This document shows positions 11,447 to 63,984 of a DNA stretch of 64,000 nucleotides, in pieces. The stretch covers positions 65,090-129,089 of the forward strand of contig CBDBLZ010000017.1 of assembly GCA_965207385.1 (NCBI GenBank), written 5' to 3'. Within the stretch, counting starts at the first letter, position 1, and the number at the start of each line of letters is the position of its first letter. The notes under the pieces are model-generated. The model was not told the origin of the DNA. It made no database searches and saw only the letters and a program-made list of their open reading frames with translations. The position numbers and the translations under genes are program-made. The stretch is from Rhodothermales bacterium. GTDB taxonomy: Bacteria; Bacteroidota; Rhodothermia; Rhodothermales; Bin80.

Positions 11447-11451
11447 GGCTG

Positions 11452-12687
11452 CTAGACGAGGTGCTTCGGGGCCTCAATCTCTGCCGCCTCCTGGACAAAG
11501 CGGCTGTTTCGCGTCATGCCGGAAAGCGCGCCCGTCATCACAGCCGTGGTGATGCAAGAGAGTCCGTGCCGCTCTGCGTATGCTTCCACGCCCTTGCGCG
11601 TCTTTTCGCGGATGAAGGCGATGGGAATGCGTTCCAGCCGCCGGAGCGCAGGCTCGCCCCAGACCATCGCCGTCTTCGGCAGTGACCTCCCCGCGGGCTG
11701 GTACCTGCAGGCAGGATCCTCCTCCAGATAGTCTCCCGTCATGGCATATGCTCGGCACCGACAGCCCCCGCAAATCTCCTTGAACTCGCAGACCCCGCAG
11801 CGACCCTTGAGGCGGCCTGCGTCACGCAGATCGCGGAAAACCGGTGAATTCTCCCAGATGTCCGTAAACGACCGCTCAAGAACGCTGCCTCCCACCGCAG
11901 TCATGTACGGACACGGGGTAACGTCCCCCTCCGGCGTGATGCGACAATACTGGGTTGCCGCCATGCATCCTCCACTTTCGAGGCCGGCCAGTCCCCTGTC
12001 GTAGGCGATCTGCTTGAACTGCGGCGCACACTTGGAGCGCACCAGCATCGGTCTGTAGTCATCCTGCATGTCGACCAGGCGCTCAAGCATAGCCTCCGTC
12101 CGCGCTGCCTTCAGTTCAGACATGCCCTGACCCCGGCCCGTCTGCACCAGGAAGTACAGGTTGAAAGCCCAGGCTCCCTTTTCTCTTGCAAACGAGAGCA
12201 ATGCGGGGATTTCGTCGTAGTTCTCCTCCATGACGGTCGTCTGCACGAGAACCTCGAGACCGTGCCTGCGGCACGTGTCGATGGCGCGCACGCTGTGCTG
12301 CCAGGCATTTGGTCCGCCGCGAAAGCTGTTGTGCCGCTCAGGATCGATGGAGTCGATGCTGATGCCCACACCCTTTATGCCACAATCGACCATCCGGCCT
12401 GCTACACGGTCGGTTACCAGGACGCCATTGGTGCCCATGACCACCCAGATGCCCTTCCCGGAGGCCCGCTCGGCGATCGCAAAGATATCCCGACGAAGCA
12501 GCGGCTCCCCGCCCGTCAGGATCAACATCTCCGTGCCGAGCGCCTCCATCTCGTCCAGGAGACGGAGACACTCCTCCGTGGTCAGTTCACGCTCCGCCTT
12601 GCGCCCTGCCGACATGTAGCAGTGCGGACAGCGCAGGTTGCACTTCTTGGTCAGATTCCAGGAGATGAGGGAAGGCTTGTACTTCAC
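11452..12687 (-). CDS. radical SAM / SPASM-domain enzyme with a C-terminal PCP_red-like domain (NirJ/AhbD-like architecture)
   Basis: ORF 11452..12897 trimmed to the in-frame GTG at 12687 (V/M-KYKPSLISWNLTKKCNLRCPHCY, i.e. CxxxCxxC). It has LTGGEPLLRRD and GTNG, SPASM cysteines CGVCEFKEICGGCRC, and the tail VWGEPALRRLERIPIAFIREKTRKGVEAYAERHGLSCIT. The longer ORF would overlap the upstream gene by 180 nt. Confidence 0.8.
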   Translation of the reverse strand: MKYKPSLISWNLTKKCNLRCPHCYMSAGRKAERELTTEECLRLLDEMEALGTEMLILTGGEPLLRRDIFAIAERASGKGIWVVMGTNGVLVTDRVAGRMVDCGIKGVGISIDSIDPERHNSFRGGPNAWQHSVRAIDTCRRHGLEVLVQTTVMEENYDEIPALLSFAREKGAWAFNLYFLVQTGRGQGMSELKAARTEAMLERLVDMQDDYRPMLVRSKCAPQFKQIAYDRGLAGLESGGCMAATQYCRITPEGDVTPCPYMTAVGGSVLERSFTDIWENSPVFRDLRDAGRLKGRCGVCEFKEICGGCRCRAYAMTGDYLEEDPACRYQPAGRSLPKTAMVWGEPALRRLERIPIAFIREKTRKGVEAYAERHGLSCITTAVMTGALSGMTRNSRFVQEAAEIEAPKHLV

Positions 12688-12716
12688 AGCGCTGGTAGCG
12701 GCAATGACACGCGCTG

Positions 12717-14255
12717 CTAGACCTTCCTTTGGCGCCACCGAACCAGGCCAATCAGCCCGATCTCGACAAGCAGCACGACAAGCGCCCATGTGGCCATGGG
12801 GCCCGCTGCAGAAGTGGTCTCCAGTGGCGCCAGGTACACGTGATACCAGGCAGACAGTCCGCGCTTGTTGCCGCGCTCGCCACTCGCGCCGTCCCATACA
12901 GAGAACGAGACGGGCGTAAAGGCGCTCTCGGCGAAATATAGCCCGCTTGGCCGCTCGCGCGCGCCCTTGAAGATGACGGTCCAGACGCCGTCACCATACT
13001 GCAGGTAATGCTCAAGTACCTCGTCTGACTCCGCTATGGAGCCCGACCCCGACCCGATGAGAACTTGCGCCTCTTCTGCTGCCATGTCGGCAAACCAGAT
13101 GGCCATGGGGTTCCTGTCGTCCCCAAACATGAAATAGGGGCGCTCGAGTCCCTCGGGTGTGGTGGCGGGCAATAGCAGGGCCACGGCGTCGGAATACAAC
13201 AGGCTGTCGGGGGCCGCCGTTGAATCAAACGGCGGCACCGCCATGGCCGGATGGTTCGAACCTGTTGCCTCAGCCGTCATGTCGTGCCACGAGAGCATGA
13301 AGGCAATGTCATCCTCGTTGTAGACGGCACTGACCGAAACGCCGTTTACACCGGGATAGAAGGACCGGCCCGGCTCAATGACCTGTGCCACGATGGGGAA
13401 ATAGGCCGTCGGGGCACCGTCAAAGAGCGCCGGCCCGCGCGTGATATCAAGCTCCTCGCTGAGGCCCAGACCTTCCACCACCGTTCCGTATTCGGGCTCA
13501 TCGCGCGATAGTGACCACACGTAGTCTACCAGCGCCCAGCGGTCCTCCTCCTCGATCGTCTGGGCATAGGAAGGCATCGGAGTGCCGTTTAGCCCCGTGG
13601 TAAACGTGCGGTACACGTCTTCGCGCGTCGGGCTCGCCCGGAATGTCCAGCGCTTGGTCAGGTCAGCCGGACGGATGGGGTATCCCCAATCGTCCACGAG
13701 ATCCGGTGCGGAAAACCCGTTTGCGCGACCGTTGTCACCGTGGCAGTCGGCGCACTGGTTGGCTTCGTACACTTCGCGTCCTCGCTCCAGCCTGCCCTCG
13801 TCAAAGGGCGGGGCATCGGGCACCTCCATTACCTGGGGCGTACCGTAGGGACCGGCAAAGGCCGGCTCGAAAGTCTTGATGTAGTATGCCAGATTGGTGA
13901 TCTCCGACTCGCTCAGGATTCCCTCCCAGGCCGGCATGCTGGTATAGGGCATGCCCAGGCGTATGCTGCGCGCAATGTCCTCCGTGGTCGGAAGCTCACC
14001 ACTGGCCGTGGAGCGAAACTTGAAGTTTCCCGAAGCAAAATCGCGCGGCGTCGGGCGCACGTACTGCGTTGCCACGGCCACTGCATCCCCTTCGGAGCCG
14101 TGGCAATGGGCACACTTAGCATCATACACCTCCTTGCCGGCAGAGCGCTGCTGCTCAGTACCCAGGTCGGGTTCCTGGGCAAACGCCACGGACGCCCACA
14201 ACAGCGCGCCAAATGCTAGGGCGGCAGTCCTCATGGTGCCATATCTCCTCATCAA
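12717..14255 (-). CDS. dihaem cytochrome c fused to an EB_dh/DOMON-like domain (tentative), with a C-terminal TM anchor
   Basis: 512-aa ORF with a signal peptide (AFGALLWASVAFAQE), CAHCH and CADCH sites, and MPAWEG. The C-terminal half is beta-rich (SVSAVYNEDDIAFMLSWHD...VSFSVWDGASGERGNKRGLSAWYHVYL). The final segment is hydrophobic (WALVVLLVEIGLIGLV). The start overlaps the upstream stop by 4 nt. Confidence 0.7.
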   Translation of the reverse strand: MMRRYGTMRTAALAFGALLWASVAFAQEPDLGTEQQRSAGKEVYDAKCAHCHGSEGDAVAVATQYVRPTPRDFASGNFKFRSTASGELPTTEDIARSIRLGMPYTSMPAWEGILSESEITNLAYYIKTFEPAFAGPYGTPQVMEVPDAPPFDEGRLERGREVYEANQCADCHGDNGRANGFSAPDLVDDWGYPIRPADLTKRWTFRASPTREDVYRTFTTGLNGTPMPSYAQTIEEEDRWALVDYVWSLSRDEPEYGTVVEGLGLSEELDITRGPALFDGAPTAYFPIVAQVIEPGRSFYPGVNGVSVSAVYNEDDIAFMLSWHDMTAEATGSNHPAMAVPPFDSTAAPDSLLYSDAVALLLPATTPEGLERPYFMFGDDRNPMAIWFADMAAEEAQVLIGSGSGSIAESDEVLEHYLQYGDGVWTVIFKGARERPSGLYFAESAFTPVSFSVWDGASGERGNKRGLSAWYHVYLAPLETTSAAGPMATWALVVLLVEIGLIGLVRWRQRKV

Positions 14256-15079
14256 TGCGGCATGCCCTGAGCGCGCGGCTCAAAGCCGGTGTATTCGTAA
14301 AGAAAAATGATCACGTCCCAGATTTCCTCCTCCGTCAGGAATAGCTCCCAGGCCGGCATGGCGCTCGACCATGGCGTGGACTCCGACGGCAGTCCGGGCG
14401 CTCCCTTGGCAATGCGCCAGAACAGATAGGATTCCTGCAGCATGGCGATGGTGGTGGCATCATTGAAGTTTGCCGGAATGGGATCATATCCGTGTGCAAA
14501 CATGCCCGCTCCTTCCATGTTGTCGCCGTGGCAGTAGAAGCAGTTCTGGAAGTATATGCGGCGCCCGTTCAGGACGTGACGCTCAAAAGCCTCCGGATCC
14601 GACGTCTCGAGCTCCCGGTAGGGATTGACTTCCGTGGCGAGGTTGATCGACCTGCCCTGGAAATTGATGGATCCGGGCGGCGGCGGGTGTATGGTGCGAG
14701 CACTGACAGGCGGCTGTGGCGGCTGCGACATGTCGGAGTAGACCTTGAGCGCCGCAAACAACGGAAGTGCCAGCGTCACCATGAGCAGCGACCAACGGTA
14801 CTTGGGAAGGACGAGGAAATTGACGGCGGAAGTCCGGGCCGAGGCCAGCTCTTCCACGTCGGCTGCCAGGTACGTTGCAAGCGCGAGCGTGATGATCGCC
14901 ATGAAAAGCACGATGATCGAGCTTGGAAGCGGAGGATTGACGCCGAAGCTGAGCCCCAGATACACGGCAGCCCACCATAGGGCAATCCACGCAAGGCGGT
15001 TCAGCTTCAGCCACCGGGTTACCACCAGCTGGATCAGAACCAGTGCAGCGGCAATGCCAAGTACGACTAGCGTATTCAT
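14252..15079 (-). CDS. membrane-anchored monohaem cytochrome c
   Basis: 275-aa ORF with about four N-terminal hydrophobic helices, then CFYCH and SSAMPAWE. Confidence 0.75.
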   Translation of the reverse strand: MNTLVVLGIAAALVLIQLVVTRWLKLNRLAWIALWWAAVYLGLSFGVNPPLPSSIIVLFMAIITLALATYLAADVEELASARTSAVNFLVLPKYRWSLLMVTLALPLFAALKVYSDMSQPPQPPVSARTIHPPPPGSINFQGRSINLATEVNPYRELETSDPEAFERHVLNGRRIYFQNCFYCHGDNMEGAGMFAHGYDPIPANFNDATTIAMLQESYLFWRIAKGAPGLPSESTPWSSAMPAWELFLTEEEIWDVIIFLYEYTGFEPRAQGMPH

Positions 15080-15088
15080 GTAGCCTGC

Positions 15089-15883
15089 CTATAAGGCAGC
15101 CAGGTAGTCGATCAGAATCTGCAATTCTGCCGCCGAGACCTGCTCATGAAACGAGGTCGCGGTCATCATGGCTGACATGACGCCTGCGGCAAACCCCTCC
15201 GTTACGGTCGCGTCCGGGTCCACGATGGATTCGTACAACTCGCCACGGCTCAGCCGACTGCCAACGCCTGCCAGCGTGGGACCGGCACCGACAGCGCCAT
15301 CCAGCGTGTGGCAGGTGTTGCACAGATACGCCGTGAAGAGGGTCTCCGCATCGCGCGGCTCACCCGCTGCCACTGCCGCAGTCGGAGCCGCTGCGGGCGC
15401 GATCTGGCCTTGCCATTCCAGTTCGGTGTCCATGGTCACCGACGGCGTGCCGCCAAGCGACTGCAGATAGGCGATGACAGTCAGAATCTCCGTGTCCGTC
15501 AGTGATATCGGCGGGCGCGCAACGTTGGGCATGCCGGCCACAAAACCCTCCACGACGTAGGCGTTGGGATCGTACATGGACTCCGCCAGATAAACGACGT
15601 CGCTTACTCCTTCCTCCCGCTCGGCAGCGATGGCGCCGATGCCAGCCAGGTCAGGAAAACGGAGCCCCGTCCCGGATTCGCCTACGGTGTGGCATGTCAG
15701 GCACGTTCCCTTGCCCGCTGCAATTTCCTGGCCTACGGCCACCATTTCCTCCGTAGTAAGATTGGCGCCGATCACGATATCCTCGGGCGGATCCGTTCGC
15801 TTCTGCGGTACCCACAGACTGACGTACCAGTAGAAGGCCGATACGATGATCGTAAAGCCGAATATTTGAAGGGCGTGTTTCAC
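15089..15883 (-). CDS. membrane-anchored dihaem cytochrome c
   Basis: 264-aa ORF with an N-terminal TM helix (IFGFTIIVSAFYWYVSLWV) and CLTCH and CNTCH sites. Confidence 0.8.
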   Translation of the reverse strand: MKHALQIFGFTIIVSAFYWYVSLWVPQKRTDPPEDIVIGANLTTEEMVAVGQEIAAGKGTCLTCHTVGESGTGLRFPDLAGIGAIAAEREEGVSDVVYLAESMYDPNAYVVEGFVAGMPNVARPPISLTDTEILTVIAYLQSLGGTPSVTMDTELEWQGQIAPAAAPTAAVAAGEPRDAETLFTAYLCNTCHTLDGAVGAGPTLAGVGSRLSRGELYESIVDPDATVTEGFAAGVMSAMMTATSFHEQVSAAELQILIDYLAAL

Positions 15884-15916
15884 TGCTACTGATGCCTGGC
15901 AGCCGAGGGCTTCGTC

Positions 15917-17647
15917 CTACGCCGGTTTGGGTGCCCACTTCTTCTTGGACGAAAGTCCCGTCAGGAAGAAGACGATGGCAATGAAAAGGAAGAAAATGAT
16001 GACGGTAACCGAAACCACCAGGCCGGCATAGCCAAGCGTGGGAGTAAAGGCGTCCACGGACGTGTCCCTGATGACCCCGTATACGTGCCAGTGCTGCCGC
16101 ATCCCGGCGCGCACATACCCCATCAGACCCATCGTCCACGCGAACGTAATGGCCAGGAAAAACAGCGCATACTGGGACATCGGGGAGATCTTGCCCCAGG
16201 CAATCTCTCCCTTCTTGTCCGCGCCCCGGAAGAGGAAAATGTCAATGACGGTCACGGAAATCATGGCGAAGAGCACCGACATGACCTGCGGCTGCGAAAG
16301 TCCGATCCGCGTCTGGGCATCGACAAAATACCCGTAGACCCCCAGGAAGACCACGAAGATGACCACGATGGCAAAGATGCCAAACTGGATGAGATTGCCG
16401 GCCCTGGCCCAGCTCACGGTGGCGACCTTGTTGGATCTCCGGTACAGCAGGAAGCTTACGTAGGTGGTGAGGATGAGCACGTTCACGGCCGTGTTCTTGG
16501 CCGACATCACGCCCAGTACGTTGAGTATTGGGTGGTGAGAGCCTCCCATGGCCCTGGCCTCCTCCACCGTGGCCACCAGCGAGTGAGGCGTGGCCCAGAC
16601 GATAAAGCACAGCGTGATGACCGCCAGAAGATATTTTATGAACTTTCGATACCGCTCCGCACCGCCGATTCGCCCCATGCTCAGCCACAGGTAGAAGTTG
16701 GCCGCCAGGAACAGATTGCCGATCAGCACGGCCTGTATGATGAACAGCCAGGAAAACGTGCCGCCCATGAGCGTAATGCCCAGGCTCTGATCGTAGGCGT
16801 AGATCTCCACACCGAGCCAGTACCCGGCAAATGGCAGCGGCAACAGGGCGCATATGGCAATGAAATTGCCGATGTAGCCCATCCAGTCATAATGCGCCTT
16901 TTCCTCCAGCGTCTTGGCGCCAAGAAACTTGTAGGCGCCGTAGGCCGCCCCGATGGCCCCGCCAAAGGCCATGTTGGCAATCAGCCGGTGGATGTTGATG
17001 GGCATCCATATGTAATTGTTGATGGCGTCCCAAACGCTCGTCAGATTGCCCAGCTCGTCTATGCCATTGGGCGTGTTCATGAAAGTGAGCCATCCGTTGG
17101 CGATGAACATGATGGCCGTGCCCACGATATTGAGCATCACCCCCAGGAAGAGGTGTACTCTGGGCGAGAATTTGCCCCATCCGTAATAGTAGGCGTAGAG
17201 GAAGAAGGCCTCCAGAAAGAACAGCAGGACGTACGGCAAAAAGGTCCAGCTGAAGATCTTTACCAGGTACTGGGTTAGCGCCGGATAAAAGACCATGAGG
17301 CCAAAGGTGAGCAGCGCACCCAGCGTGGCCGTAAATGAGAAGGAGACAGACAGCAGGCGTGTGAAATCATGCGCCAGTTCATCGAATCTCTTGTCACCGG
17401 TCTTGTAGCCGATGAACTCGATGACGATGGCGAACATGGGCACTGCAAGCACGAATGCCGCGAACATCAGGTGCAGCTCGGCCACGACCCACATGATGAC
17501 CCGGCTGCTGATGAACGGCAGTGCCCGATAGTCTCCCTCGCCCGCTGCCTCCTGGGGTCCGGCCCACGCGGCTTCGCCAGACAGCGCCGCCACAGCCAGC
17601 AAAAGAAGCCCTACGGGCAGTGCGCGAACAAGCCGGATGCGCATCAT
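15917..17647 (-). CDS. cytochrome bd subunit I (CydA)-like membrane haem protein; atypical, with no long Q-loop and no adjacent CydB
   Basis: 576-aa polytopic ORF. FFLEAFFLYAYYYGWGKFSPRVHLFLGVMLNIVGTAIMFIANGWLTFMNTP aligns by eye with E. coli CydA FFLESTFVGLFFFGW...LVANGWMQNP. Conserved His residues occur in AELHLMF and NIHRLIANMAFGG. Confidence 0.75.
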   Translation of the reverse strand: MMRIRLVRALPVGLLLLAVAALSGEAAWAGPQEAAGEGDYRALPFISSRVIMWVVAELHLMFAAFVLAVPMFAIVIEFIGYKTGDKRFDELAHDFTRLLSVSFSFTATLGALLTFGLMVFYPALTQYLVKIFSWTFLPYVLLFFLEAFFLYAYYYGWGKFSPRVHLFLGVMLNIVGTAIMFIANGWLTFMNTPNGIDELGNLTSVWDAINNYIWMPINIHRLIANMAFGGAIGAAYGAYKFLGAKTLEEKAHYDWMGYIGNFIAICALLPLPFAGYWLGVEIYAYDQSLGITLMGGTFSWLFIIQAVLIGNLFLAANFYLWLSMGRIGGAERYRKFIKYLLAVITLCFIVWATPHSLVATVEEARAMGGSHHPILNVLGVMSAKNTAVNVLILTTYVSFLLYRRSNKVATVSWARAGNLIQFGIFAIVVIFVVFLGVYGYFVDAQTRIGLSQPQVMSVLFAMISVTVIDIFLFRGADKKGEIAWGKISPMSQYALFFLAITFAWTMGLMGYVRAGMRQHWHVYGVIRDTSVDAFTPTLGYAGLVVSVTVIIFFLFIAIVFFLTGLSSKKKWAPKPA

Positions 17648-18138
17648 AGACGGTCAATCGGAAAGAGCCGCACCAAAACAACTGCCTGCCATGGACATTG
17701 TCAAGGCAATCCGCACCGGCTCTGAACCCATGAATATCTGTCTGAGACCAACTTTGGCAAAATGTACGAAGCAGCCGGAACCCCGTTCGACCGGTGGGCC
17801 ATATAATAGTGCGTCATAGTCGGAAGCAGGAGTGAATTTTTTTGTTGCTGCCATAGCGGCACTCCTTTTGCCGGCAGCGTTTTGCCTGGCAGTCTGGGGA
17901 GGTGTGTCCCTGCTCAAGCGGATACACCGGAAGGGCCATGCGCTGCGTGCGCTTCCTGTGCCGAGAAAGATCGCTGTCGCCGCGCGTGCCCGGGTCACCG
18001 AGCCGGAGTCGGACGACGGGCCTTGGCCCGATTACACGTATGATTCGGGCATATCGCGCGGCTTTCCGGAAGCATGGGAAGAGGATTTGTTGCTCAGGCG
18101 CAACTAAATTAGCCCCTAACCAGACGGGCACATCCACT

Positions 18139-19305
18139 ATGTTGCAGCGGCTCATCGCCAGGCTGGATGCGTACAGGGAAGTTGCCTTTGACCTGATTCG
18201 CATCTACCTGGGCATCGGGCTCTTTGTCCGGGGCATTCTTTTCGCCTACGATTCCGACGCCTTTGTCGCGCTGCTGCCGACGGGTGCGCCCGCCTGGCTT
18301 ACGCTTTCGTGGGTGCTGACTACCGTGGCGTTCGTCCACATGCTCGGCGGACTGCTGATCGCGGTGGGCTACTGGACGCGCTTCGCCACGCTGGCCCAGA
18401 TTCCAATATTGTTTGGCGCCGTTTTTATCAGCATCGGCGGTCTGTTCTCGCCAGACCAGTCGTTCGAGCTTTCCGCCCTGGTACTTCTGCTACTCGTACT
18501 GGTGCTCATATGCGGCTCCGGAAAGTGGTCCGTTGACTATGCCATTGGAGAGCGCAGGCCATCCATTCAGATCGCCCTTGACCGGATAGCCGAGTACCGG
18601 AATACGGCATTCGATGTCTTGCGGATGTACCTCGGGGTGGCGCTGTTTGTCCGCGGCGTGGTCTTTATTTCCGACGCAGGCGCATTCATGGCCCTTCTCG
18701 GCAATGACTCCGCGGGATTCTTGCAATCCTCCGTCCTGGTGCATTACGTGGCGCTGGGCCACGTATTCGGCGGCTTTATGATGGCGGCTGGACTGCTGAC
18801 GCGCGTGGCGGCATTGGTGCAGATTCCCATTCTCGTAGGTGCCGTCGCTGTCAGCCAGGTGCAGGGCGGTCTCATGGCGGGCACCCAGGGCTTCGAGATC
18901 TCGGCCCTTACCCTGTTTTTGCTGGTCCTGGTGCTGCTGTATGGATCCGGCCAGTGGTCTGCCGACCATTACCTGCTGCGGCGGCCAGCGCCCGCTACCA
19001 GGCGGGAACGTACGGAGCGTGCAACGGAAATACTCTCGCACGACGTGCCGGAGGAGGGTCCCTTCGTGGATCCGGTAGAGATACTGGCCGTACCCGAAGC
19101 CAGAACGGACGCTGCCCTTGCCGCAGCGCTGAAAGACAACCCGCTGGTGGTCACACACGCGCGCTATCCCTTCTGGGGTTGGCTGCTCTTTCTGCTGGAC
19201 GTGACCCCGCGCCCTCGGGAGGTCATCTTCCGGCACATGAAAACGGGGAAGATCATAAAGCGCAGCAAAGATCCTGACGTGCTGCGCCAGTTCCGGTATC
19301 GGTAG
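18139..19305 (+). CDS. tandem DoxX-family membrane protein with a C-terminal soluble extension
   Basis: ORF 17902..19305 trimmed to MLQRLIARLDAYREVAFDLIRIYLGIGLFVRG (ATG at 18139). A second copy of the same pattern follows (IAEYRNTAFDVLRMYLGVALFVRG). Confidence 0.65.
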   Translation: MLQRLIARLDAYREVAFDLIRIYLGIGLFVRGILFAYDSDAFVALLPTGAPAWLTLSWVLTTVAFVHMLGGLLIAVGYWTRFATLAQIPILFGAVFISIGGLFSPDQSFELSALVLLLLVLVLICGSGKWSVDYAIGERRPSIQIALDRIAEYRNTAFDVLRMYLGVALFVRGVVFISDAGAFMALLGNDSAGFLQSSVLVHYVALGHVFGGFMMAAGLLTRVAALVQIPILVGAVAVSQVQGGLMAGTQGFEISALTLFLLVLVLLYGSGQWSADHYLLRRPAPATRRERTERATEILSHDVPEEGPFVDPVEILAVPEARTDAALAAALKDNPLVVTHARYPFWGWLLFLLDVTPRPREVIFRHMKTGKIIKRSKDPDVLRQFRYR

Positions 19306-19357
19306 CGCCGGCTGCTGCCGGCCATGTCATGGCTAATCTCCGCAAGCTGCAGTAGCG

Positions 19358-20314
19358 ATGAGAATCACCGAGATACTGGACCGGGCGAAGGACCCGCTCA
19401 TCTCCTACGAGATCATCCCTCCCGTTCGCGGCAGCTCGGCCGATCAAATCATGGCCGTCGTCGAAGATCTGATGCCGTTCGATCCTCCCTTTATTGACGT
19501 AACCAGCCATTCGGCAGAAGCACACTACGAGGAATTACCCGACGGCACGTGGCGGCGCAGGGTCAAACGCAAGAGACCCGGCACCATTGGCATCTGCGCT
19601 GCCATCCGGAGCCGCTTCGGCGTCGAAACAGTGCCGCACATCCTCTGCCACGGCTTTACCCGCAGCGAAACCGAGGATGCGCTGATTGAACTGAACTACC
19701 TGGGTATCAATAACGTGATGGCGCTCCACGGCGATGACACGGGCTTCCAGAAGACCGTGCCGCCCGGCACGGGAGTCAACACGGCTGCCATTGATCTCGT
19801 GCGCCAGATCGGTGCCATGAACCAGGGCCGCTACCTCGAAGAGCTCATGGATGCGAAGCCGACGGACTTTTGCATTGGCGTAGCCGGATATCCCGAGAAG
19901 CACTTCAAGGCGCCAAATCTTACCTGGGACATCCTGTATCTGAAGAAAAAGGTCGATGCAGGTGCCCATTACATCACCACGCAGATGTTCTTTGATCCTG
20001 AGCACTACGTGGGCTTTGTCGAGCGATGCCGCGCCGTGAATATTGAAGTTCCAATCATTCCCGGCATCAAGGTACTGACAACCAAGAGGCATCTTCACCT
20101 GCTGCCGAGCCGGTTTCACGTGACGGTCCCCGAGGCGCTTGCGGCGGAGGTTGAAGAGGCGTCGCCAGAGCACGTGCGCGATGTCGGCGTCGAATGGGCG
20201 CTTCGGCAATGCGATGCGCTTATGTCGGCCGGCGCGCCGTGCATTCATTTCTACGTCATGCAGCAGTCCGGGCCTGTGCGCCGCGTTGTGGAGGGCTTGC
20301 GCAAGCTGGCCTGA
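19358..20314 (+). CDS. metF: methylenetetrahydrofolate reductase
   Basis: 318-aa ORF with SYEIIPPVRGSS, PFIDVTSH and YITTQMFFD, typical of MetF. Confidence 0.85.
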   Translation: MRITEILDRAKDPLISYEIIPPVRGSSADQIMAVVEDLMPFDPPFIDVTSHSAEAHYEELPDGTWRRRVKRKRPGTIGICAAIRSRFGVETVPHILCHGFTRSETEDALIELNYLGINNVMALHGDDTGFQKTVPPGTGVNTAAIDLVRQIGAMNQGRYLEELMDAKPTDFCIGVAGYPEKHFKAPNLTWDILYLKKKVDAGAHYITTQMFFDPEHYVGFVERCRAVNIEVPIIPGIKVLTTKRHLHLLPSRFHVTVPEALAAEVEEASPEHVRDVGVEWALRQCDALMSAGAPCIHFYVMQQSGPVRRVVEGLRKLA

Positions 20315-56805: not shown

Positions 56806-57540
56806 GTGCAACCGGTGGACGCAAACCCGGATCCCCCTGGCATGCCAGACCACGTTCCACGCCACAACCTGAGTATTCGCCAGACGGCCGATGGCGCTGC
56901 CACGCTCTACTCACGCGCCTACGGGCAGACGTACCATAGCGAGCACGGTGCCATTCTCGAGGCGCGCCACGTGTTTCTTCGGGGAACGGCCTATCGCCCG
57001 CCGGCACGCGTACTGGAGGTAGGATTTGGCGCCGGGCTGAATCTCCTGGTAACGGCCTCCGAGACGCAGGAGCACGTCCTGCGCTACACCGCGCTGGAGC
57101 GCTATCTGCCGCCTGCGGACCTGCTGCAGGTACTCGATTACGGCGCCGTCGTCGGCAGGCCGCGGCTATGGGCAGCTCTTGTAGATTGGCGGCGCACCCT
57201 TCCCTTGGACGTGCCGGTCGGCACCTACCGCTTCTCGTGCATGGGCTGCGAGCTTGATCTGCTGATGGGCGAGGCCACCGAATCAAAGCTCCCGGCCCGC
57301 ACGTTTGAGGCCGTGTACCTGGATCCGTTCAGCCCAAGGGCCAATCCCGAGTTGTTCACCCCCGGGTTCCTGTCCGCGCTCTACCGGGCTACGACCCCGG
57401 GCGGGCGTATTGCGACCTACTCTGCTGCCGGGGCCGTGCGACGTGCCCTTGCTGCCGCGGGATATGAGGTGAGGCGCGAGGCCGGCCCGCCGGGCAAGCG
57501 CGAGTTTCTGACAGGGCTCAGGAATGAGTCCTGTCCGTAA
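56806..57540 (+). CDS. mnmD: tRNA (mnm5s2U34) methyltransferase MnmD (stand-alone MnmC methyltransferase domain), full length
   Basis: 244-aa ORF (alternative start at 56842) with TLYSRAYGQTYHS, VLEVGFGAGLN and AVYLDPFSPRANPELFT. Confidence 0.75.
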   Translation: MQPVDANPDPPGMPDHVPRHNLSIRQTADGAATLYSRAYGQTYHSEHGAILEARHVFLRGTAYRPPARVLEVGFGAGLNLLVTASETQEHVLRYTALERYLPPADLLQVLDYGAVVGRPRLWAALVDWRRTLPLDVPVGTYRFSCMGCELDLLMGEATESKLPARTFEAVYLDPFSPRANPELFTPGFLSALYRATTPGGRIATYSAAGAVRRALAAAGYEVRREAGPPGKREFLTGLRNESCP

Positions 57541-57925
57541 TTACTATGCGTCCGTCCTGCTCCAGCGTGGCCCACTGGCCCGAGCGCAGCCGGCAAAAGT
57601 CGTCCTCCGACAGGCTTGCAACCGGCAGCACCTTGCCGTAGAGCTCCTCGGCCACAATCGAGGCCAGGGTCAGGAAGGCGTCCGGGCCGCAGGCAATCAC
57701 GGCGGCCGGCGCCGTCCCCCGCCGCAGGGACTCCAATAGGACCGCCGTGGAGGTGCTTGAGCCGCGCGTGGCGGGAAGCGCGAGGATAGAAGCAGCGGCA
57801 ACGCAGCCCGAAAGCGGATGCCTGCGGTCAATGATCTCACCGGTTGCAGCATCGTAGCCGCCCCAGAAGCTGAGCGGCTCCCGGCTGGCCAGCACCTTGC
57901 CGGCTGCCGGTCCCGCTACAAGCAT
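57518..57925 (-). CDS. DUF126 (aconitase X swivel / small subunit) protein, copy 1
   Basis: ORF 57518..58120 trimmed to MLVAGPAAGKVLASREPLSFWGGYDAATGEIIDRRHPL (ATG at 57925). Confidence 0.7.
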   Translation of the reverse strand: MLVAGPAAGKVLASREPLSFWGGYDAATGEIIDRRHPLSGCVAAASILALPATRGSSTSTAVLLESLRRGTAPAAVIACGPDAFLTLASIVAEELYGKVLPVASLSEDDFCRLRSGQWATLEQDGRIVITDRTHS

Positions 57926-57936
57926 ACGTGCCCGGA

Positions 57937-58455
57937 TCAACCCTTCCACGGCTCTTCGCTCAGCGTTACCCGCCCGCTCGCGGCGGACTCCACGCAGTCC
58001 CGCAGGCTCCCGCACACCACGCGGGTCCCCAGCAGCCCCGGCGCATAGTATGCGTACTTGGCAGAATTGGTCATGATGGTCCGCACGCGCCGCGGCAGCA
58101 TGGGCGTGGTCAGAATGCACGTATCCACGGTCACCGCGCCGCCGAATGCTTCCAGGCGCGCCAGATATCCCATTCGCTTTGCCAGCTGCCGCATCGCGCG
58201 GCTTGAGGTAACCAGGAATTGCACATCATCGTGCCTTTGCCGTCCCTTGAGAAGAGGGGCCAAACGGCCAAACTCGGTGATGGAAAAATGCGGACTCCCC
58301 AGAATCACCATGTCCAGCGCTGCACCCTCTGCCGTAGTGAGCTCGCACCTGGCATCCCTCAGACGGTCCAGCGTAACCTCCACCGTCCGCTCCGGCGCAT
58401 GGCCCTGGAAAGCTGCCTCCGCGGTAGGCGCCTCAGGCGTTACTCCCACAAGGTG
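57937..58455 (-). pseudogene. 3' fragment (C-terminal ~172 codons) of a DUF521 (aconitase X catalytic subunit) gene
   Basis: It aligns with residues ~248-419 of the full-length copy at 62725..63984, with 11 aa differences in 172. Similarity stops at ~58455. The first ~37 codons of ORF 57937..58566 are island sequence. Confidence 0.8.
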
Positions 58456-59494
58456 CAATTCAACAAGCCCTGGCCCACCGGGGCCGACATGCTCTGCAAT
58501 AGCCAACAACCCTGGTTGGGCTATGTCTTGGATTGATCGTGATAGTGCCAAGCATCGCGGATTCACTTCGCTTTGCTGTTCATGCGTGAATCGGCAGCCT
58601 GGGCCTATGGGCGTCCCTGAAATGGAGCGGATTCATGGCGCGTAGGTGTGATGCGTGCTCACCAGGATTTGCATGGCCATGGCTTCTGCCGGCTCGCGCA
58701 AGACCGCTGACTGCACGGGCGCTCTCGGTTTCCAGGCGTTGATGGACGATACTGGCGCTGCACTTGCAAGATCACCTCCTGGCCAGGCAGACCGTCAGCA
58801 GCAGGCGCAAGAGCTGCATCGAATCCTTCGTGCAGCTGACGCCGAAGCGGCAACAGGCAATGTAGCCGCTCGGCGTCTCCCTCGGATACAACTCACGGCA
58901 GGCCGCAGCCAAGGACAACACTCTCAGAGCGCAATTCCTCCAGGATGTGCTATTGGCGCCTCGTCCCTGCCTATCCGATTCTTGGAAATTCGGTCACGAC
59001 ACGGTCTCTGCGACGCGCAACATTCTGCCTGCCATTGATATCAACAATATTGCCATACAATTCTATTTTGTTGCCATATTTATAGCACGTAGTATTCACC
59101 ATTATATCTGTAATGGCGTCATATCATTGAAATTCCGACTTACGACGATTGCTCTCGGGACAGGACTGGTTAAGAGCGGTGGAAAGGATACGGGCTCGGA
59201 GGAAGCCCTGCTAAGCAGACGTGATTCAGTCCCTTCATGGCTACCACCGTCGTCGACTTCATAACACCAAAGTGGTCGGGCTCAACGGAATGTGCAGCAA
59301 TTCCGGAGAATGACGCGAGCAAGCTTGGAGACTTCACGCACTATCCCTCTTCGCGGGCAGGGCGCATGCCACCCGATTGGAGGTTGTCGGCGTCGCTGCC
59401 ACGGAAGCATGATTTGGGCTCTGGAACGACAGTATTGGGATGAGGCCTCGCGGCCAGCTTCCGTTTGGGCGGCAGTTTGGAGGAGTGAAAACCG

Positions 59495-61309
59495 ATGAAA
59501 TTCATGTTACCTGAGACACTCAGCCCTGAAAGGACCAAGCGGATACTGTTGACGGCGGTTGTTGCGGCGACCATTTTCGTTCGCTGCGACAGCTTCAACA
59601 TTGCCGACGTGGATTCGGCGACCGATTCCGCCTCGCTGATAGAATCGGTCAGGACGTACTACGAAGCGGCGATTCAGCCGAACGGGCTTGATGGACAAAT
59701 CGGCGGCAAGATCTCTGGCGACAGCATCAGGGCCGCCGTCCTAGCAGAGATGGTACGACAGTACCCGCCCGACTGGACCCAGGCCGTGACGTGGAGAGAC
59801 GGCAACGAATATCACCTTGCAACCATACTTGGCGCCGGCAAGCCCTCGATCAATCCCGCACAAGACAGCATTGCGGTGGTGCGAACTCTGGTTGCGGATC
59901 TTAATGAAGATGGGAAAGTCACCGATGCCCTTCTGGTCGAGTTCGCCAGTTCCGACCCGCTTGACCCAGCTTCCTTTGCTCATTACGTGAAACAGTGGTT
60001 CACTCAGGACTACGGCGATAACAAGGTCCTGGCCGCGGAGTATTCTCTTGGATACGAGGGATCACAGGCCTACTTATACAACCCATCGGACAGCGTACTT
60101 ACACCAGCCAGCTTGTCGCTGGAAAAGCGCAGGACGGCAGGCAAGGCAGCAAGGGAGGACGGTGTATTCTGCTGGTATTCCCTTGTTGAATTTGGCGAAA
60201 TATGTGGGGAACATCCTACCACAGGGGTTGAGGAGTGTAATGCCCGATATAGGTGGGAACTAACCTGCGTGCAGATGGATTCCGGAGGAGGGGAAGATGG
60301 AGGTGGAGGGGGCGGAGGCGGAGGTGATGACGGCAATGGCGACAGTGTAGGTACGGGAGGTGGAGGTGACGATGGAAAAGACGATGATGGTGAAGACACC
60401 AGTGATTCACTCTACTTGTCCTGCGACTCCTCTGTCGAACGAGGCCGCACGGCCGGGTGCACTGTCAACGCTCCGGATGACGGCAAGGGTTTGAACCCGG
60501 ACCAACTCACGTATGACTGGTCTTCCTCGAGTGGAGCGACATTTACCGGTACGGGGACCGGCGGCAATGAGTGGAGGGGCACCGCAACGGAATCCGTCAC
60601 GGTCAGCGTTGCGGTAGTTTCTCAGGGATTCTCTGATTCCCAGGAAATCACCGTTAATGCACGGTCAGGTTGGGGTGTAGGTCAAGCTAGTGTTACAAGC
60701 GTGACGTATGCGAACTTGGGTTCGATTTTGGGACGGTACACTGTCCCTTCAATCGCTACTCCAACTTTTGGAGACCCTGTCGCAGGTGGTGGACCATGGT
60801 CGGGGCGCTTCGCCTCCGGAAGTGCGCCGTCGTTTTCCGGTGACATTCAAATTAATGACAACTACGGCGGCGGGAGCAACACTTACCGAAATGCAAGGCG
60901 GGACGGCTGCCTGAGTGCACGGAACCAGGCGCAAGAATATGAAACATATAGCAGCATCAATTCCATGTGTGGGACGACTGCAGACATGAATGCCTACGAA
61001 CAGCAGATCCGGACTCACGAGTACGGACACCACAATAACCTCAATAGCTGCTTCGGCGAGGCGCAGGGAGTTAAGGCAATGGCGAGCATGGAAGCCATTG
61101 TCGGCGAGTCGGCTGCCGCCGTAGGAACAGCTTTGGGCAACGAGTGGTCAAGCTTCTACTCAAATTATCTTGGGCCTGCCATGGCGTGGTCACCTGCTGC
61201 GCCGGGAGGAGTTGAATTCTACCACGCCAGAAACAAGGGTCTTGTTAGCGAGCACTGGTCCTTGGGCGTGCCCGCTACCGCCGGACACACGAACGCGAAT
61301 TGCAACTAG
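59495..61309 (+). CDS. secreted, lipoprotein-like multidomain protein with a Gly/Asp linker, an Ig-like segment and a C-terminal HExxH (zincin-like) domain
   Basis: 604-aa ORF with GGAGGAG 10 nt upstream. The N-terminus is hydrophobic and ends in a Cys (LLTAVVAATIFVRCDSF). HEYGH is at 61016-61030 (IRTHEYGHHNNLNSCFGE). Confidence 0.65.
   Translation: MKFMLPETLSPERTKRILLTAVVAATIFVRCDSFNIADVDSATDSASLIESVRTYYEAAIQPNGLDGQIGGKISGDSIRAAVLAEMVRQYPPDWTQAVTWRDGNEYHLATILGAGKPSINPAQDSIAVVRTLVADLNEDGKVTDALLVEFASSDPLDPASFAHYVKQWFTQDYGDNKVLAAEYSLGYEGSQAYLYNPSDSVLTPASLSLEKRRTAGKAAREDGVFCWYSLVEFGEICGEHPTTGVEECNARYRWELTCVQMDSGGGEDGGGGGGGGGDDGNGDSVGTGGGGDDGKDDDGEDTSDSLYLSCDSSVERGRTAGCTVNAPDDGKGLNPDQLTYDWSSSSGATFTGTGTGGNEWRGTATESVTVSVAVVSQGFSDSQEITVNARSGWGVGQASVTSVTYANLGSILGRYTVPSIATPTFGDPVAGGGPWSGRFASGSAPSFSGDIQINDNYGGGSNTYRNARRDGCLSARNQAQEYETYSSINSMCGTTADMNAYEQQIRTHEYGHHNNLNSCFGEAQGVKAMASMEAIVGESAAAVGTALGNEWSSFYSNYLGPAMAWSPAAPGGVEFYHARNKGLVSEHWSLGVPATAGHTNANCN
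60278..60410 (+). repeat. purine-rich low-complexity tract encoding a Gly/Asp linker
   Basis: It encodes DSGGGEDGGGGGGGGGDDGNGDSVGTGGGGDDGKDDDGEDTSDS and produces poly-Pro/Ser shadow ORFs on the opposite strand. Confidence 0.85.
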
Positions 61310-61311
61310 CC

Positions 61312-61923
61312 ATGAAAGCCTTAGCGGTTACACTCTCATTCCTGCTGCTTCCTCTTGCCTCGTTCGCGCAGTCCAAAGCGGGCATGATCATGAAGGGGGG
61401 CATCTTCCTGAAACCTACACCGCCGGTTGCACTTGACCAGCTTGTCGAGAAACGAAATATCGATCCCGCCATAGCTGTGCTTACGCAGAAGTTTGAACCG
61501 CGCCCCGTCCCCGAGCTCGATGCCTTCGCGGATCAGCTTGTTCGATTAATGCTTGAGCACCAGGACAGCACCACAAGGTCACATGCACGCCGCGCACTTT
61601 ATGAGGCGGGTAAGGCTCGGTCCGGCGGGACACCCTACTCCAGGGCGACGGAGATATTCATAGAGATGTATGAGTCTGTCAGCAAGGACGAGGATCACCT
61701 AAAGCCAGACGGATATTTGCTTACCGTGTATAATTCAGGGGGCGAAGATTACGTGCATAACCTGTTCGAGACCAGTCCGCAGCCGCCCGCGTGCCGGATA
61801 GGCTACGATACGCCCTGTCCGCACAAGGGGCCTTGGTGCAACGCAGCTTACGTGCTTACGGTGACCAAGAATCTCCCGGACCCTAAGCTCTGGGAGGACA
61901 GGTGTATGCCCATTGTTGAATAG
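61312..61923 (+). CDS. secreted hypothetical protein, partner of the HExxH protein
   Basis: ORF 61300..61923 trimmed to MKALAVTLSFLLLPLASFAQS (ATG 2 nt after the upstream stop). It has a Sec signal peptide and four Cys near the C-terminus. Confidence 0.6.
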   Translation: MKALAVTLSFLLLPLASFAQSKAGMIMKGGIFLKPTPPVALDQLVEKRNIDPAIAVLTQKFEPRPVPELDAFADQLVRLMLEHQDSTTRSHARRALYEAGKARSGGTPYSRATEIFIEMYESVSKDEDHLKPDGYLLTVYNSGGEDYVHNLFETSPQPPACRIGYDTPCPHKGPWCNAAYVLTVTKNLPDPKLWEDRCMPIVE

Positions 61924-61943
61924 GGCGGGACGCCATGCCCACG

Positions 61944-62328
61944 GCAAGCCCCGGCTGTGGGCAGCGCTGGAAGAATGGCGGCCCACCCTTCCCTTGGACG
62001 TGCCGGTCGGCACCTACCGCTTCTCGTGCATGGGCTGCGAGCTTGATCTGCTGATGGGCGAGGCCACCGAGGCAAGGCTTCCGGCCCGCACGTTTGAGGC
62101 CGTGTACCTGGATCCGTTCAGCCCAAGGGCCAATCCCGAGTTGTTCACCCCCGGGTTCCTGTCCGCGCTCTACCGGGCTACGACCCCGGGCGGGCGTATT
62201 GCGACCTACTCTGCTGCCGGGGCCGTGCGACGTGCCCTTGCTGCCGCGGGATATGAGGTGAGGCGCGAGGCCGGCCCGCCGGGCAAGCGCGAGTTTCTGA
62301 CAGGCTCAGGAAAGCGTCCTGTCCGTAA
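61944..62328 (+). pseudogene. 3' fragment of an mnmD-like gene (C-terminal ~125 codons), with a 1-nt deletion before the stop
   Basis: GKPRLWAALEEWRPTLPLDVPVGTYRFSCMGCELDLLMGEATEARLPART aligns with mnmD residues ~118-244. There is no N-terminal half. The deletion (acaggGctc to acaggctc) removes the stop and creates the chimeric ORF 61913..62527. Confidence 0.8.
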
Positions 62329-62713
62329 TTGCTATGCGTCCGTCCTGCTCCAGCGTGGCCCACTGGCCCGAGCGCAGCCGGCAAAAGTCGTCCTCCGACA
62401 GGCTTGCAACCGGCAGCACCTTGCCGTAGAGCTCCTCGGCCACAATCGAGGCCAGGGTCAGGAAGGCGTCCGGGCCGCAGGCAATCACGGCGGCCGGCGC
62501 CGTCCCCCGCCGCAGGGACTCCAATAGGACCGCCGTGGAGGTGCTTGAGCCGCGCGTGGCGGGAAGCGCGAGGATAGAAGCAGCGGCAACGCAGCCCGAA
62601 AGCGGATGCCTGCGGTCAATGATCTCACCGGTTGCAGCATCGTAGCCGCCCCAGAAGCTGAGCGGCTCCCGGCTGGCCAGCACCTTGCCGGCTGCCGGTC
62701 CCGCTACAAGCAT
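62306..62713 (-). CDS. DUF126 (aconitase X small subunit) protein, copy 2
   Basis: Identical to copy 1 except for two C-terminal residues (IAITDRTLS versus IVITDRTHS). Confidence 0.7.
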   Translation of the reverse strand: MLVAGPAAGKVLASREPLSFWGGYDAATGEIIDRRHPLSGCVAAASILALPATRGSSTSTAVLLESLRRGTAPAAVIACGPDAFLTLASIVAEELYGKVLPVASLSEDDFCRLRSGQWATLEQDGRIAITDRTLS

Positions 62714-62724
62714 ACGTGCCCGGA

Positions 62725-63984
62725 TCAACCCTTCCACGGCTCTTCGCTCAGCGTTACCCGCCCGCTCGCGGCGGACTCCACGCAGTCCCGCAGGCTCCCG
62801 TACACCACGCGGGTCCCCAGCAGCCCCGGCGCATAGTATGCGTACTTGGCAGAATTGGTCATGATGGTCCGCACGCGCCGCGGCAGCATGGGCGTGGTCA
62901 GAATGCACGTATCCACGGTCACCGCGCCGCCGAAAGCCTCCAGGTGCGCCAGATGCCCCTTTCGCATTGCCAGCTGCCGCATCGCGCGGCTTGAGGTAAC
63001 CAGGAATTGCACATCAACGTGCCTATGCCGTCCCTTGAGGAGGGGGGCCAAACGGCCAAACTCTGTGATGGAAAAATGCGGACTCCCCAGAATAACCATG
63101 TCCAGCGCTTCGCCCTCTGCTGTTGTGAGCTCGCGCCTGGCATCTCTCAGGCGGTCCAGCGTCACCTCCACCGTCCGCTCCGGCGCTTGGCCCTGGAAAG
63201 CTGCCTCCATGGTCGGCGCCTCGGGCGTTACGCCCACGAGGTGGAAGAGGGCAACCGCGCCCGAAGAGGCCATGGCTGCACCCAGCGCTTTCAGCGCGTC
63301 CTCGTCCGGCCGCACGTCCAGCCCCGCAAGCACCGGCACGGCATCCCTGGCTTCCTTTCCCACGAGGTGCCCCAGAACGCCGAAAAAGCCGTCGTCTTCC
63401 TGCACGGCCACCGGCACATCCACCAGCCGAATGAGGATACGTCCGGCCCTGTTCTCCTTCAGATGCAACCCGGCTGCCGGTGCCCGCCCCGTGATGGCGG
63501 CACAGATATCCAGAAGATCCGGGTACCGTTCGGTCCTGGCTCCCAGTACGGAATTGGCAAACACCACCGCACTGGATTCTCCCCAGGCCACCTGCTGTCC
63601 GAAGCTCGGGCGCGCGGCCTCCTGGTACGGAGCGCAGGTCCAGGTCGGCCGGCATCCCATTGCGGTGTAGGCCTTCATCTGCCTCCGTGCCGGCTCCGCC
63701 CAGTCCGCAGGGACGCTCCAGGCCTGCCAGCCGTGCACGTCCACGCCGCTCACGTTCAGCGTAGTCGGTACCACAACGCGCGCGCCGAGACCCGCCAGCC
63801 GCTCCGCGTATTCGAGCGTGGCCTGCCCCTGGTAAAGGCTGCTGTCCACGTGTGCGGCTTCGATATCGAGCAGGCTGTCGGTACGGAAAGCGGGCAGCAT
63901 GCGCACCAGGATGCGCATGGCCATGGCTGCTGCCGGACCCCGCTCTCCTGCGAGCGCGGCCCGGTCTGCTTCGCTGAGCTGCAT
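62725..63984 (-). CDS. DUF521 (aconitase X catalytic / large subunit) protein, full length
   Basis: 419-aa ORF with VDSSLYQGQATLEYAERL, PTWTCAPYQ, ESSAVVFANSVLGARTERYP and a C-terminus ending SEEPWKG. Confidence 0.75.
   Translation of the reverse strand: MQLSEADRAALAGERGPAAAMAMRILVRMLPAFRTDSLLDIEAAHVDSSLYQGQATLEYAERLAGLGARVVVPTTLNVSGVDVHGWQAWSVPADWAEPARRQMKAYTAMGCRPTWTCAPYQEAARPSFGQQVAWGESSAVVFANSVLGARTERYPDLLDICAAITGRAPAAGLHLKENRAGRILIRLVDVPVAVQEDDGFFGVLGHLVGKEARDAVPVLAGLDVRPDEDALKALGAAMASSGAVALFHLVGVTPEAPTMEAAFQGQAPERTVEVTLDRLRDARRELTTAEGEALDMVILGSPHFSITEFGRLAPLLKGRHRHVDVQFLVTSSRAMRQLAMRKGHLAHLEAFGGAVTVDTCILTTPMLPRRVRTIMTNSAKYAYYAPGLLGTRVVYGSLRDCVESAASGRVTLSEEPWKG

Follow-up and report, generated by a model that had tools for sequence, protein, structure and literature searches.

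We analysed a stretch of 64,000 nucleotides (nt) from a Rhodothermales bacterium (assembly GCA_965207385.1, contig CBDBLZ010000017.1, positions 65,090 to 129,089), hereafter the window. Towards its 3' end, an insert of 3,486 nt (58456-61941) carries two tightly coupled genes, which encode a 604-amino-acid (aa) lipoprotein-like protein with a C-terminal HExxH domain and a secreted protein of 203 aa, here called partner A. A first-pass annotation had read the pair as a polymorphic-toxin lipoprotein with its immunity partner, located in acquired DNA. Our comparison with related loci supports this assignment, and we consider it likely that the two-gene insert is a lipoprotein-borne toxin-immunity module of the polymorphic-toxin kind. 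The layout first described for the 604-aa protein, namely a hydrophobic segment ending in Cys, an N-terminal domain, a 44-residue Gly/Asp linker, an immunoglobulin (Ig)-like stretch and the motif HEYGH at 61016-61030, was recovered in every part. The same holds for the next gene, which starts 2 nt after the stop codon and encodes 203 residues beginning with a Sec-type signal, recognized by pattern. The features of the two genes are as follows.

59495-61309, plus strand: large gene, ATG at 59495 to stop TAG at 61307-61309, 604-aa product, read from the sequence
59495-59587, plus strand: lipoprotein-type signal peptide, residues 1-31, ending at lipobox Cys31 (...AATIFVRC/DS), read from the sequence
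59588-60280, plus strand: family-specific N-terminal domain (N-domain), residues 32-262, about 230 aa, conserved in 19 proteins
60281-60412, plus strand: Gly/Asp-rich low-complexity linker, residues 263-306, 44 aa, read from the sequence
60413-60679, plus strand: predicted Ig-like (PKD/Big-like) beta-sandwich domain, residues 307-395, from the AlphaFold2 model and Foldseek
60680-61306, plus strand: C-terminal HExxH domain, residues 396-604, about 200 aa, from profile search, alignments and the AlphaFold2 model
61307-61311, plus strand: stop codon TAG and 2-nt spacer (cc) ahead of the partner ATG, a tight coupling read from the sequence
61312-61923, plus strand: partner A, 203-aa secreted protein, ATG at 61312 to TAG at 61921-61923, read from the sequence

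A word-indexed search returned seven relatives of the large protein and one of the partner. With the C-terminal domain as the query, an exhaustive profile search recovered 188 representative clusters (defined at 50% identity) at E<=1e-3, 136 of them at E<=1e-10. The match nearly always occupies the extreme C-terminus, in proteins that are 200-670 aa long. For comparison of gene order, 13 loci were recovered from ENA, Logan and NCBI assemblies; those that could be assigned to a taxon belong to environmental metagenome-assembled genomes (MAGs) of Rhodothermales.

Wherever the DNA downstream of an HExxH gene could be read, a homologue of A was the next gene (9/9). These cases comprise the window, L001/L002/L003, L004 (partial, at a contig end), L005, L006 (two tandem copies), L007, L009 and L013. 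The gap between toxin stop and partner start is 2 nt both in the window and in its closest relative (L001/L002/L003). Elsewhere, toxin and partner are annotated about 10-17 nt apart; the one exception, of about 100 nt, is in L013, where the partner start may be miscalled. The L013 locus, on a 3.6-Mb contig with 68% guanine plus cytosine (GC), encodes two paralogous HExxH lipoproteins with an N-terminal region unlike that of the window protein, as the N-domain profile gives no match. Even so, an A-type gene stands directly after each of their genes (A-profile E 4e-23 and 1e-24). Toxin and partner occur in this locus as a duplicated pair, in two copies of 2.3 kb (5603-7906 and 10992-13305) that are 92.5% identical, flank a DDE transposase and encode proteins with 84% and 91% identity. 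Hence, the partner behaves as the cognate gene that the first reading had assumed, being co-conserved with the HExxH unit even when the N-terminus is unrelated.

The reverse arrangement, a window-type N-terminus with another C-terminus, was also found. In L008, L011 and L012, the N-domain and linker are fused to Peptidase_M15_3 instead of the HExxH unit. The match is well above the gathering score in L011 (E 3.3e-12, 46.9 bits vs a cut-off of 23.2), a protein that also matches the endolysin family phrog_894 (E 5e-9), and is weaker in L012 (E 3.4e-4) and in P0008 of L008 (E 5e-3). In all three loci, the gene that follows the M15 variant is B, which encodes a signal-peptide protein of 271-274 aa with a weak HEAT_PBS match. 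When A and B were compared by their profiles, only the signal peptide aligned (hhalign probability 25%). Homologues of A lie further downstream in L012, where the order is M15, B, an M15 remnant (8931-9137), B, A and a phage-type integrase gene, and in L008, where it is M15, B, A, a truncated A and the insertion sequence (IS) IS110. We looked for a remnant of a displaced HExxH domain in L008 and found none. L006 carries two A genes downstream of the toxin gene; the window itself has no orphan.

L006, of the HExxH type, and L012, of the M15 type, come from one sample. Beginning ahead of the start codon and spanning the N-domain and the linker, 1,197 nt of their DNA are 85.6% identical. This similarity ends completely at the end of the linker and resumes, at 80.4%, in the A gene. 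The Ig-like and HExxH unit was therefore replaced by a segment encoding M15 and B, with the old A gene kept in place. Judging from these alignments, the Gly/Asp linker is the recombination junction at which C-terminal cassettes are exchanged. L013 and the L006/L012 swap supply evidence of independent kinds. Both the modularity typical of polymorphic toxins and the presence of homologous C-terminal domains on different N-termini in other genomes, which the first-pass annotation had named as a check, are thus borne out. In 64 family members, the unit is preceded by at least 60 aa. These upstream regions form at least eight unrelated multi-member N-terminal classes, besides singletons, and 18 of these 64 proteins are of the window type. 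Typical lipoboxes (LGC, AVC, SGC, AGC) are present, by pattern, on about 25 intact N-termini. Mobile genes, either an integrase or transposases of the IS110, IS66, DDE/IS4-like, IS21 and IS256 types, adjoin most loci; the chromosomal neighbourhoods differ between loci and the distribution is patchy. Altogether, this comparison of sequences disfavours a non-antagonistic, housekeeping role.

A lone HExxH motif is weak evidence, with a chance occurrence estimated at roughly 1% per 600-aa protein. In this family the motif is not a chance match, because H508, E509 and H512, all within HEYGH (residues 508-512), are invariant in alignments of 57 and 90 sequences, and because the extended signature is present in 109 of 109 motif-bearing relatives. 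The family signature reads [VL]NxxCGT-x10-[VI]xxHExxH[EQ]x[SG]xNxC[LIV]. N489, C472 and C492 are likewise invariant in both alignments, and C519, E533, W588, C603 and a GxGPW motif are conserved in at least 90% of sequences, so that the domain has four conserved Cys (472, 492, 519, 603). Conservation extends upstream. In the 57-sequence alignment of diverse members, the Ig-like domain has six positions conserved in at least 90% of sequences (C310, R316, G317, C322, W342 and W360), including the Cys pair C310 and C322. The Ig-like and HExxH domains thus form one conserved unit, because the Cys, Trp and Arg-Gly positions of the former are conserved to the same degree. A G-rich linker is present in at least 90% of the same 57 members.

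The 604-aa protein had no match in Pfam, NCBIfam (at E<=1), PHROGs or PADLOC, and a Pfam scan of the 57 diverse members gave no family over the HExxH domain, with sporadic matches to Big_2 and similar domains elsewhere in the proteins. Against PDB sequences, the whole protein yielded Gly-linker artefacts only. Profiles of the C-terminal unit, built from 6 and 90 sequences, found nothing in PDB beyond a sub-threshold PKD match on the Ig-like part (E 0.05-0.08). Neither a housekeeping peptidase family nor a partner lacking co-conservation, the two findings that would have spoken against the first reading, was encountered: the domain matches nothing in Pfam, NCBIfam or PDB, and the partner is co-conserved. 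Neither the N-domain nor the HExxH motif region, used as queries, had a match in JGI metagenomes. A scan of viral contigs with the N-domain was also empty, and hence there is no sign of phage carriage.

We modelled residues 300-604 with AlphaFold2 from the 90-sequence alignment, and obtained a mean predicted local distance difference test (pLDDT) of 94.3 and a predicted template modelling score (pTM) of 0.88. In model numbering, a beta-sandwich at residues 8-89 (pLDDT >90) is followed by three strands at 100-155 and by short helices. A long helix (196-222) bears the HExxH motif (209-213) together with the conserved N and C. The next helix (224-234) ends at E234, which corresponds to E533, and is followed by a long helix (241-264) and a C-terminal hairpin. 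E533, conserved in at least 90% of sequences, therefore lies 21 residues past H512, on the helix that follows the HExxH helix. This spacing resembles that of thermolysin-type gluzincins, in which the corresponding residues are H146 and E166. A Foldseek search with the model of both domains, against PDB and BFVD, returned matches to Ig, PKD and Big domains along with matches of low template modelling (TM) score. The latter, such as the match to the Nir2 C-terminal domain (TM about 0.2, root-mean-square deviation 11-16 A), were judged spurious. The predicted Ig-like fold of residues 307-395 is thus confirmed at the level of the model. For the C-terminal domain, the motif, its conservation and the placement of the helices point to a zincin fold. 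Of the zincin-like toxin proposed in the first-pass annotation, the HExxH motif stands, being invariant and placed on a helix of the model; the fold itself was not confirmed by Foldseek. We predict that this domain is a zinc metallopeptidase and the toxin module of the protein, with E533 as the candidate third ligand.

The N-terminus of the 604-aa protein, MKFMLPETLSPERTKRILLTAVVAATIFVRC followed by DSFNIADVD, consists of a basic n-region and a hydrophobic stretch up to Cys31. A Cys followed by D-S/N occurs at the homologous position in relatives (FVSC/DN, FARC/DS, FTSC/DS, LTQC/DS and FVCC/DS). These patterns suggest that Cys31 is lipidated. The N-domain that follows carries the motifs YPPDW, AVVRTLVAD, LVEFxSxDPL and YVKQW across its 19 proteins, and ends in a Cys-rich segment (...C226...TC258V). 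It gave no match in Pfam or PDB searches. It precedes the HExxH unit in some proteins and an M15 domain in others, and is a candidate delivery or 'escort' domain.

Partner A begins with MKALAVTLSFLLLPLASFA followed by QS, a Sec-type signal of the form AxA/Q that was assigned by pattern only. In the alignments of A homologues (A6 and A9), the signal peptide and C161, C169 and C176 are conserved; four Cys are conserved in total. No match was found for A in Pfam, NCBIfam (E<=1), PHROGs, PADLOC or PDB chains. Its AlphaFold2 model is all-alpha (pLDDT 84.8), and Foldseek returned weak ARM/HEAT-type solenoid matches only (E >= 0.13). We predict that A is a periplasmic immunity protein, an all-alpha helical-repeat inhibitor of the HExxH domain. 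Four Cys are conserved in the toxin domain as in A, and two disulfide pairs in each would fit folding outside the cytoplasm.

The insert is also distinct in composition, in agreement with its initial description as low-GC. Among 243 overlapping 3.5-kb stretches of the window (mean GC 0.615, standard deviation 0.016), none is lower than the insert, at 0.562. GC at third codon positions (GC3) is 0.60 and 0.65 in the two genes, vs 0.75-0.79 in neighbouring genes. A direct repeat of 1,303 nt, with 96.5% identity between its copies by self-BLAST, brackets the insert; the host genes within it were named by Pfam.

57153-58455: left copy of the direct repeat, with the 3' part of the Methyltransf_30 gene (gene intact), the whole AcnX-swivel gene and the 3' part of AcnX (gene truncated)
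58456-59494: 5' part of the insert, non-coding by six-frame translation, tblastn, blastn and composition
61942-63243: right copy of the direct repeat, with Methyltransf_30 truncated and AcnX-swivel and AcnX intact

The 45 differences between the two copies sit at both ends, where identity is about 91-92%, and one falls in the central ~600 nt. Such clustering suggests that the copies recombined or underwent gene conversion, and did not decay uniformly. The layout is what would be expected of a Campbell-type single-crossover integration of a circle that contained the module and an internal 1.3-kb fragment from a related lineage. The duplication could also be a chimeric assembly of two strains. 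Insertion at a tRNA gene was rejected as an explanation, as no tRNA and no Rfam family lies within the window. In the non-coding part, a degraded open reading frame (ORF) with an in-frame stop (58752-58883, plus strand) is similar (tblastn E 1.6e-7) to the C-terminal end of an incomplete ORF that adjoins the module in L009 (3183-3455, minus strand). This fragment hints at the end of a transposase-type gene and at an IS element that once travelled with the module. Further downstream, about 360 nt upstream of the toxin start, lies a 111-nt AT-rich core (59030-59140) with 32% GC in a genome of 62% GC. The stretch 59296-59964, which covers the last ~200 nt before the toxin ATG, is 75.7% identical to L011 (blastn). 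A promoter or regulatory region that travels with the module may lie in this upstream DNA. A sigma-70 scan of the AT-rich upstream region gave nothing on the toxin strand, and promoter and terminator scans over the insert stayed at the level of shuffled sequence.

We propose the following mechanism for the module. The 604-aa protein would be exported by the Sec pathway, lipidated at Cys31 and anchored in the outer membrane, and its ~230-aa N-domain would serve delivery or entry. The C-terminal 'warheads', as the comparison between loci shows, are exchanged by recombination at the Gly/Asp linker. In the window, the warhead would consist of the Ig-like domain and a disulfide-bonded, zinc metallopeptidase-like domain of ~200 aa, in which H508 and H512 are the predicted zinc ligands, E509 the catalytic base and E533 the likely third ligand. 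This warhead would act in the envelope or periplasm of the recipient cell. The 203-aa partner, secreted to the producer's periplasm, would bind and block the peptidase domain and so protect the producer and its kin, as co-occurrence suggests. The module would move among genomes with transposases and integrases, and here it would have arrived as the 3.5-kb insert of lower GC. The periplasm or envelope is the most likely site of action, because A and B carry signal peptides and the alternative warhead is of the peptidoglycan-peptidase or endolysin type. The conserved Cys sets in the toxin domain and in A are further signs of an extracytoplasmic location. By analogy with the M15 warhead, the target is most likely a cell-wall or envelope component.

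Polymorphic toxin systems are defined by C-terminal toxin domains that vary, by an immunity gene directly after the toxin gene and by orphan cassettes (PMC3482391; Zhang, de Souza, Anantharaman, Iyer & Aravind 2012). The loci studied here share with them a conserved N-terminal region with alternative C-termini, a downstream gene specific to the warhead, orphan cassettes and the company of mobile elements. The similarity extends to the parts, since zincin-like toxin domains (Tox-MPTase1-5, HopH1 and PVC-metallopeptidase), Imm-HEAT immunity proteins and lipobox-anchored polymorphic effectors have all been described (PMC3482391), and our module pairs an HExxH warhead with a helical-repeat candidate immunity protein. 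However, the window protein has no RHS or filamentous repeats and no markers of type V, VI or VII secretion systems (T5SS, T6SS, T7SS) or of PVC, and carries a lipoprotein signal instead. In addition, its HExxH domain matches no Pfam model (Tox-MPTase included, if in the library) and has a signature of its own, VNxxCGT...HExxH[EQ]x[SG]xNxC. The immunity candidates also differ in carrying signal peptides; secreted immunity proteins for cell-wall-directed toxins have been described, as an exception (PMC3482391).

The overall logic of the module is that of SitA/SitI of Myxococcus, in which lipoprotein toxins are delivered by TraAB outer-membrane exchange (PMC5562445, PMC8546572). SitA proteins have non-homologous families of N-terminal escort domains, modular C-terminal toxins and an adjacent immunity gene, and are associated with mobile elements (PMC5562445, PMC8546572). 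The N-terminal classes found here, at least eight and many with lipoboxes (by pattern only), fit this scheme. In contrast, the warheads of SitA are cytoplasm-acting nucleases and the immunity protein, SitI, is non-exported, whereas peptidase-type warheads with signal-peptide partners imply a periplasmic or envelope target and no import step. The known relatives of our module are, moreover, in Rhodothermales and not in myxobacteria.

A parallel to the warhead is the C-terminal domain of VgrG2b from Pseudomonas aeruginosa, an HExxH zinc peptidase with a downstream Glu ligand that is preceded by a beta-sandwich (TTR) domain (PMC6899460). The toxicity of VgrG2b is confined to the periplasm, and PA0261, its immunity protein, depends on its own signal peptide to neutralise it (PMC6899460). 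The succession of Ig-like domain, HExxH with E533 and signal-peptide partner mirrors this organization. VgrG2b is delivered as part of the T6SS spike and not as a lipoprotein, however, and its Glu lies 44 residues after the second His, vs 21 here. As to homology, no PDB chain matched by profile (E<=10) except PKD domains, and VgrG2b is not among the listed Foldseek matches. M15 (LAS-type) cell-wall peptidases and phage endolysins are linked to the module through its alternative warhead, which belongs to them and is borne by the same N-domain. The window domain differs in having HExxH and not the SxHxxGxAxD...HxH pattern, and M15 is the warhead of the sister variant.

Several observations weigh against a toxin-immunity module. 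By sequence, no known toxin, peptidase or immunity family was matched, and no metallopeptidase appears among the 50 listed Foldseek matches in PDB or BFVD, a search with a two-domain query whose results are dominated by the Ig-like domain. The Arg at position -1 of the lipobox is atypical. The co-occurrence counts (9/9 and 3/3) are not phylogenetically independent. Toxin genes are split by a frameshift or stop in L006 (~10001-10044), L007 (~11062-11074), L011 (10275-10306) and L012 (7132-7135), all in long-read assemblies; these splits could be sequencing errors, decay with the immunity genes kept, or switching. Finally, we identified no machinery for secretion or transfer, in an analysis that included no search for TraA/TraB, and the delivery step is consequently conjecture, with vesicles, membrane exchange or release as the candidate routes. 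The annotated neighbours in the 13 loci include no T6SS gene, and the 604-aa protein has no T6SS-related Pfam match. Export as a cargo of the type IX secretion system (T9SS) was rejected, since no C-terminal sorting domain model of NCBIfam or Pfam matches and the extreme C-terminus belongs to the conserved catalytic domain, ending in a conserved Cys.

The same anatomy would also suit a surface or secreted lipoprotein metalloprotease without an antagonistic function, involved in nutrient acquisition, surface-protein processing or envelope remodelling. The partner would then be a periplasmic inhibitor or chaperone that guards against premature activity during export. Such inhibitors exist for some secreted metalloproteases, as Inh/AprI do for serralysins. 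A signal-peptide partner, tight coupling and an invariant HExxH are equally compatible with this explanation, and Ig-like domains are of a kind common in surface enzymes. However, it accounts poorly for a warhead that is swapped for an endolysin-like M15 domain with the adjacent gene changing at the same time, and for the orphan A genes and the cassette of toxin remnant and B downstream. Tandem duplication of the partner, paralogous whole pairs, and a patchy distribution in differing neighbourhoods beside transposases and integrases also go against it. We therefore regard a non-antagonistic protease as unlikely. The protease with a dedicated inhibitor that the first-pass annotation offered as its alternative describes no mechanism of its own, since inhibition is also how an immunity protein would work.

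It is more improbable that the HExxH domain is not an enzyme at all, but a structural metal-binding or adhesive domain in a pair with an unrelated role, or that the local arrangement is partly an artefact of assembly. The former would agree with the missing family matches and with Foldseek recovering no zincin fold. Against it, an invariant H, E and H, together with a conserved Glu at a gluzincin-like spacing over 90 diverse sequences, argue for catalysis. As for an artefact, a chimera of two strains in the metagenome assembly could have produced the flanking repeats of 1.3 kb with 96.5% identity. The gene pair is real in either case, because it recurs intact in many independent assemblies.

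The least probable alternative is an effector anchored on the cell surface and directed at eukaryotes (grazers or hosts) or at extracellular substrates, with the partner as an export chaperone: a lipobox, a conserved N-domain and polymorphic C-termini are known from host-directed effectors such as APD1/APD2 of Amoebophilus, a Bacteroidetes endosymbiont (PMC3482391), and our proteins share lipobox-bearing N-termini with varied C-termini, but a warhead-specific signal-peptide partner kept as an orphan is what self-protection and not chaperoning predicts, the alternative warhead is of the bacteria-targeting peptidoglycan-peptidase or endolysin type, and the relatives are found in environmental Rhodothermales MAGs without evident host association.

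If the pair is indeed a toxin-immunity module, the HExxH unit would represent a new and sizeable toxin domain family (188 clusters) that is absent from Pfam, NCBIfam and PDB and has a clear active-site signature and a high-confidence model. Partner A would define a new family of periplasmic helical-repeat immunity proteins. The toxin domain, the immunity family and the N-domain are all uncurated, and the insert most likely belongs to a widespread family that had not been described. In turn, the design of lipoprotein, escort domain and swappable warhead would be present in other phyla, with warheads directed at the envelope. To our knowledge, this design has been experimentally characterised so far only for the SitA nucleases of Myxococcus. 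Its presence here would raise the question of how an outer-membrane lipoprotein reaches the periplasm of a neighbour without TraAB, T6SS or contact-dependent inhibition (CDI). The peptidase itself would be new, with a possibly essential envelope target. For experiments, the compared loci offer two warheads, each with its cognate partner, as well as naturally occurring orphans and a junction that is defined.

On balance doubtful is a broader proposal, that lipoprotein-borne polymorphic toxins are a widespread delivery strategy and not a myxobacterial peculiarity. Rhodothermota, and one or more unrelated lineages of high GC, would then share a large family, so far undescribed, that anchors exchangeable envelope-targeting warheads (a new zinc-peptidase fold and M15) in the outer membrane. 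Membrane or vesicle transfer would pass the toxins on to neighbours and deliver them straight to the compartment of their action. Such a strategy would explain why the immunity proteins are periplasmic, and would require neither an import step nor a dedicated secretion system.

Additional features were seen in the related loci. In L006, the module of toxin and two A genes is bracketed by direct repeats of 912 nt (8170-9081 and 13267-14178; 99.7% identical). An array of roughly 60-nt tandem repeats (9103-9519) stands directly upstream of its toxin gene, and two inverted IS110 copies lie downstream (14480-16253 and 17870-19643). L012 encodes a 626-aa protein (1126-3006) made almost wholly of Sel1/TPR-like repeats (AQxxLGxxYxxGxGVEQD), with a signal-peptide-like segment, between an A-type copy (P0016, L012 1-872) and the toxin locus. 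This may be a further immunity-like or adaptor protein. In L001 (2947-4275) and L005 (4091-5317), the gene after A encodes a protein of 408-442 aa, weakly similar between the two loci (mutual blastp E 6e-5) and with no Pfam match. The module may thus include a further accessory gene in these loci, one that the window does not have. Lastly, and incidentally, a DnaB helicase gene split by an intein with a LAGLIDADG endonuclease domain is located a few kb from the module in L002 (8504-10861).

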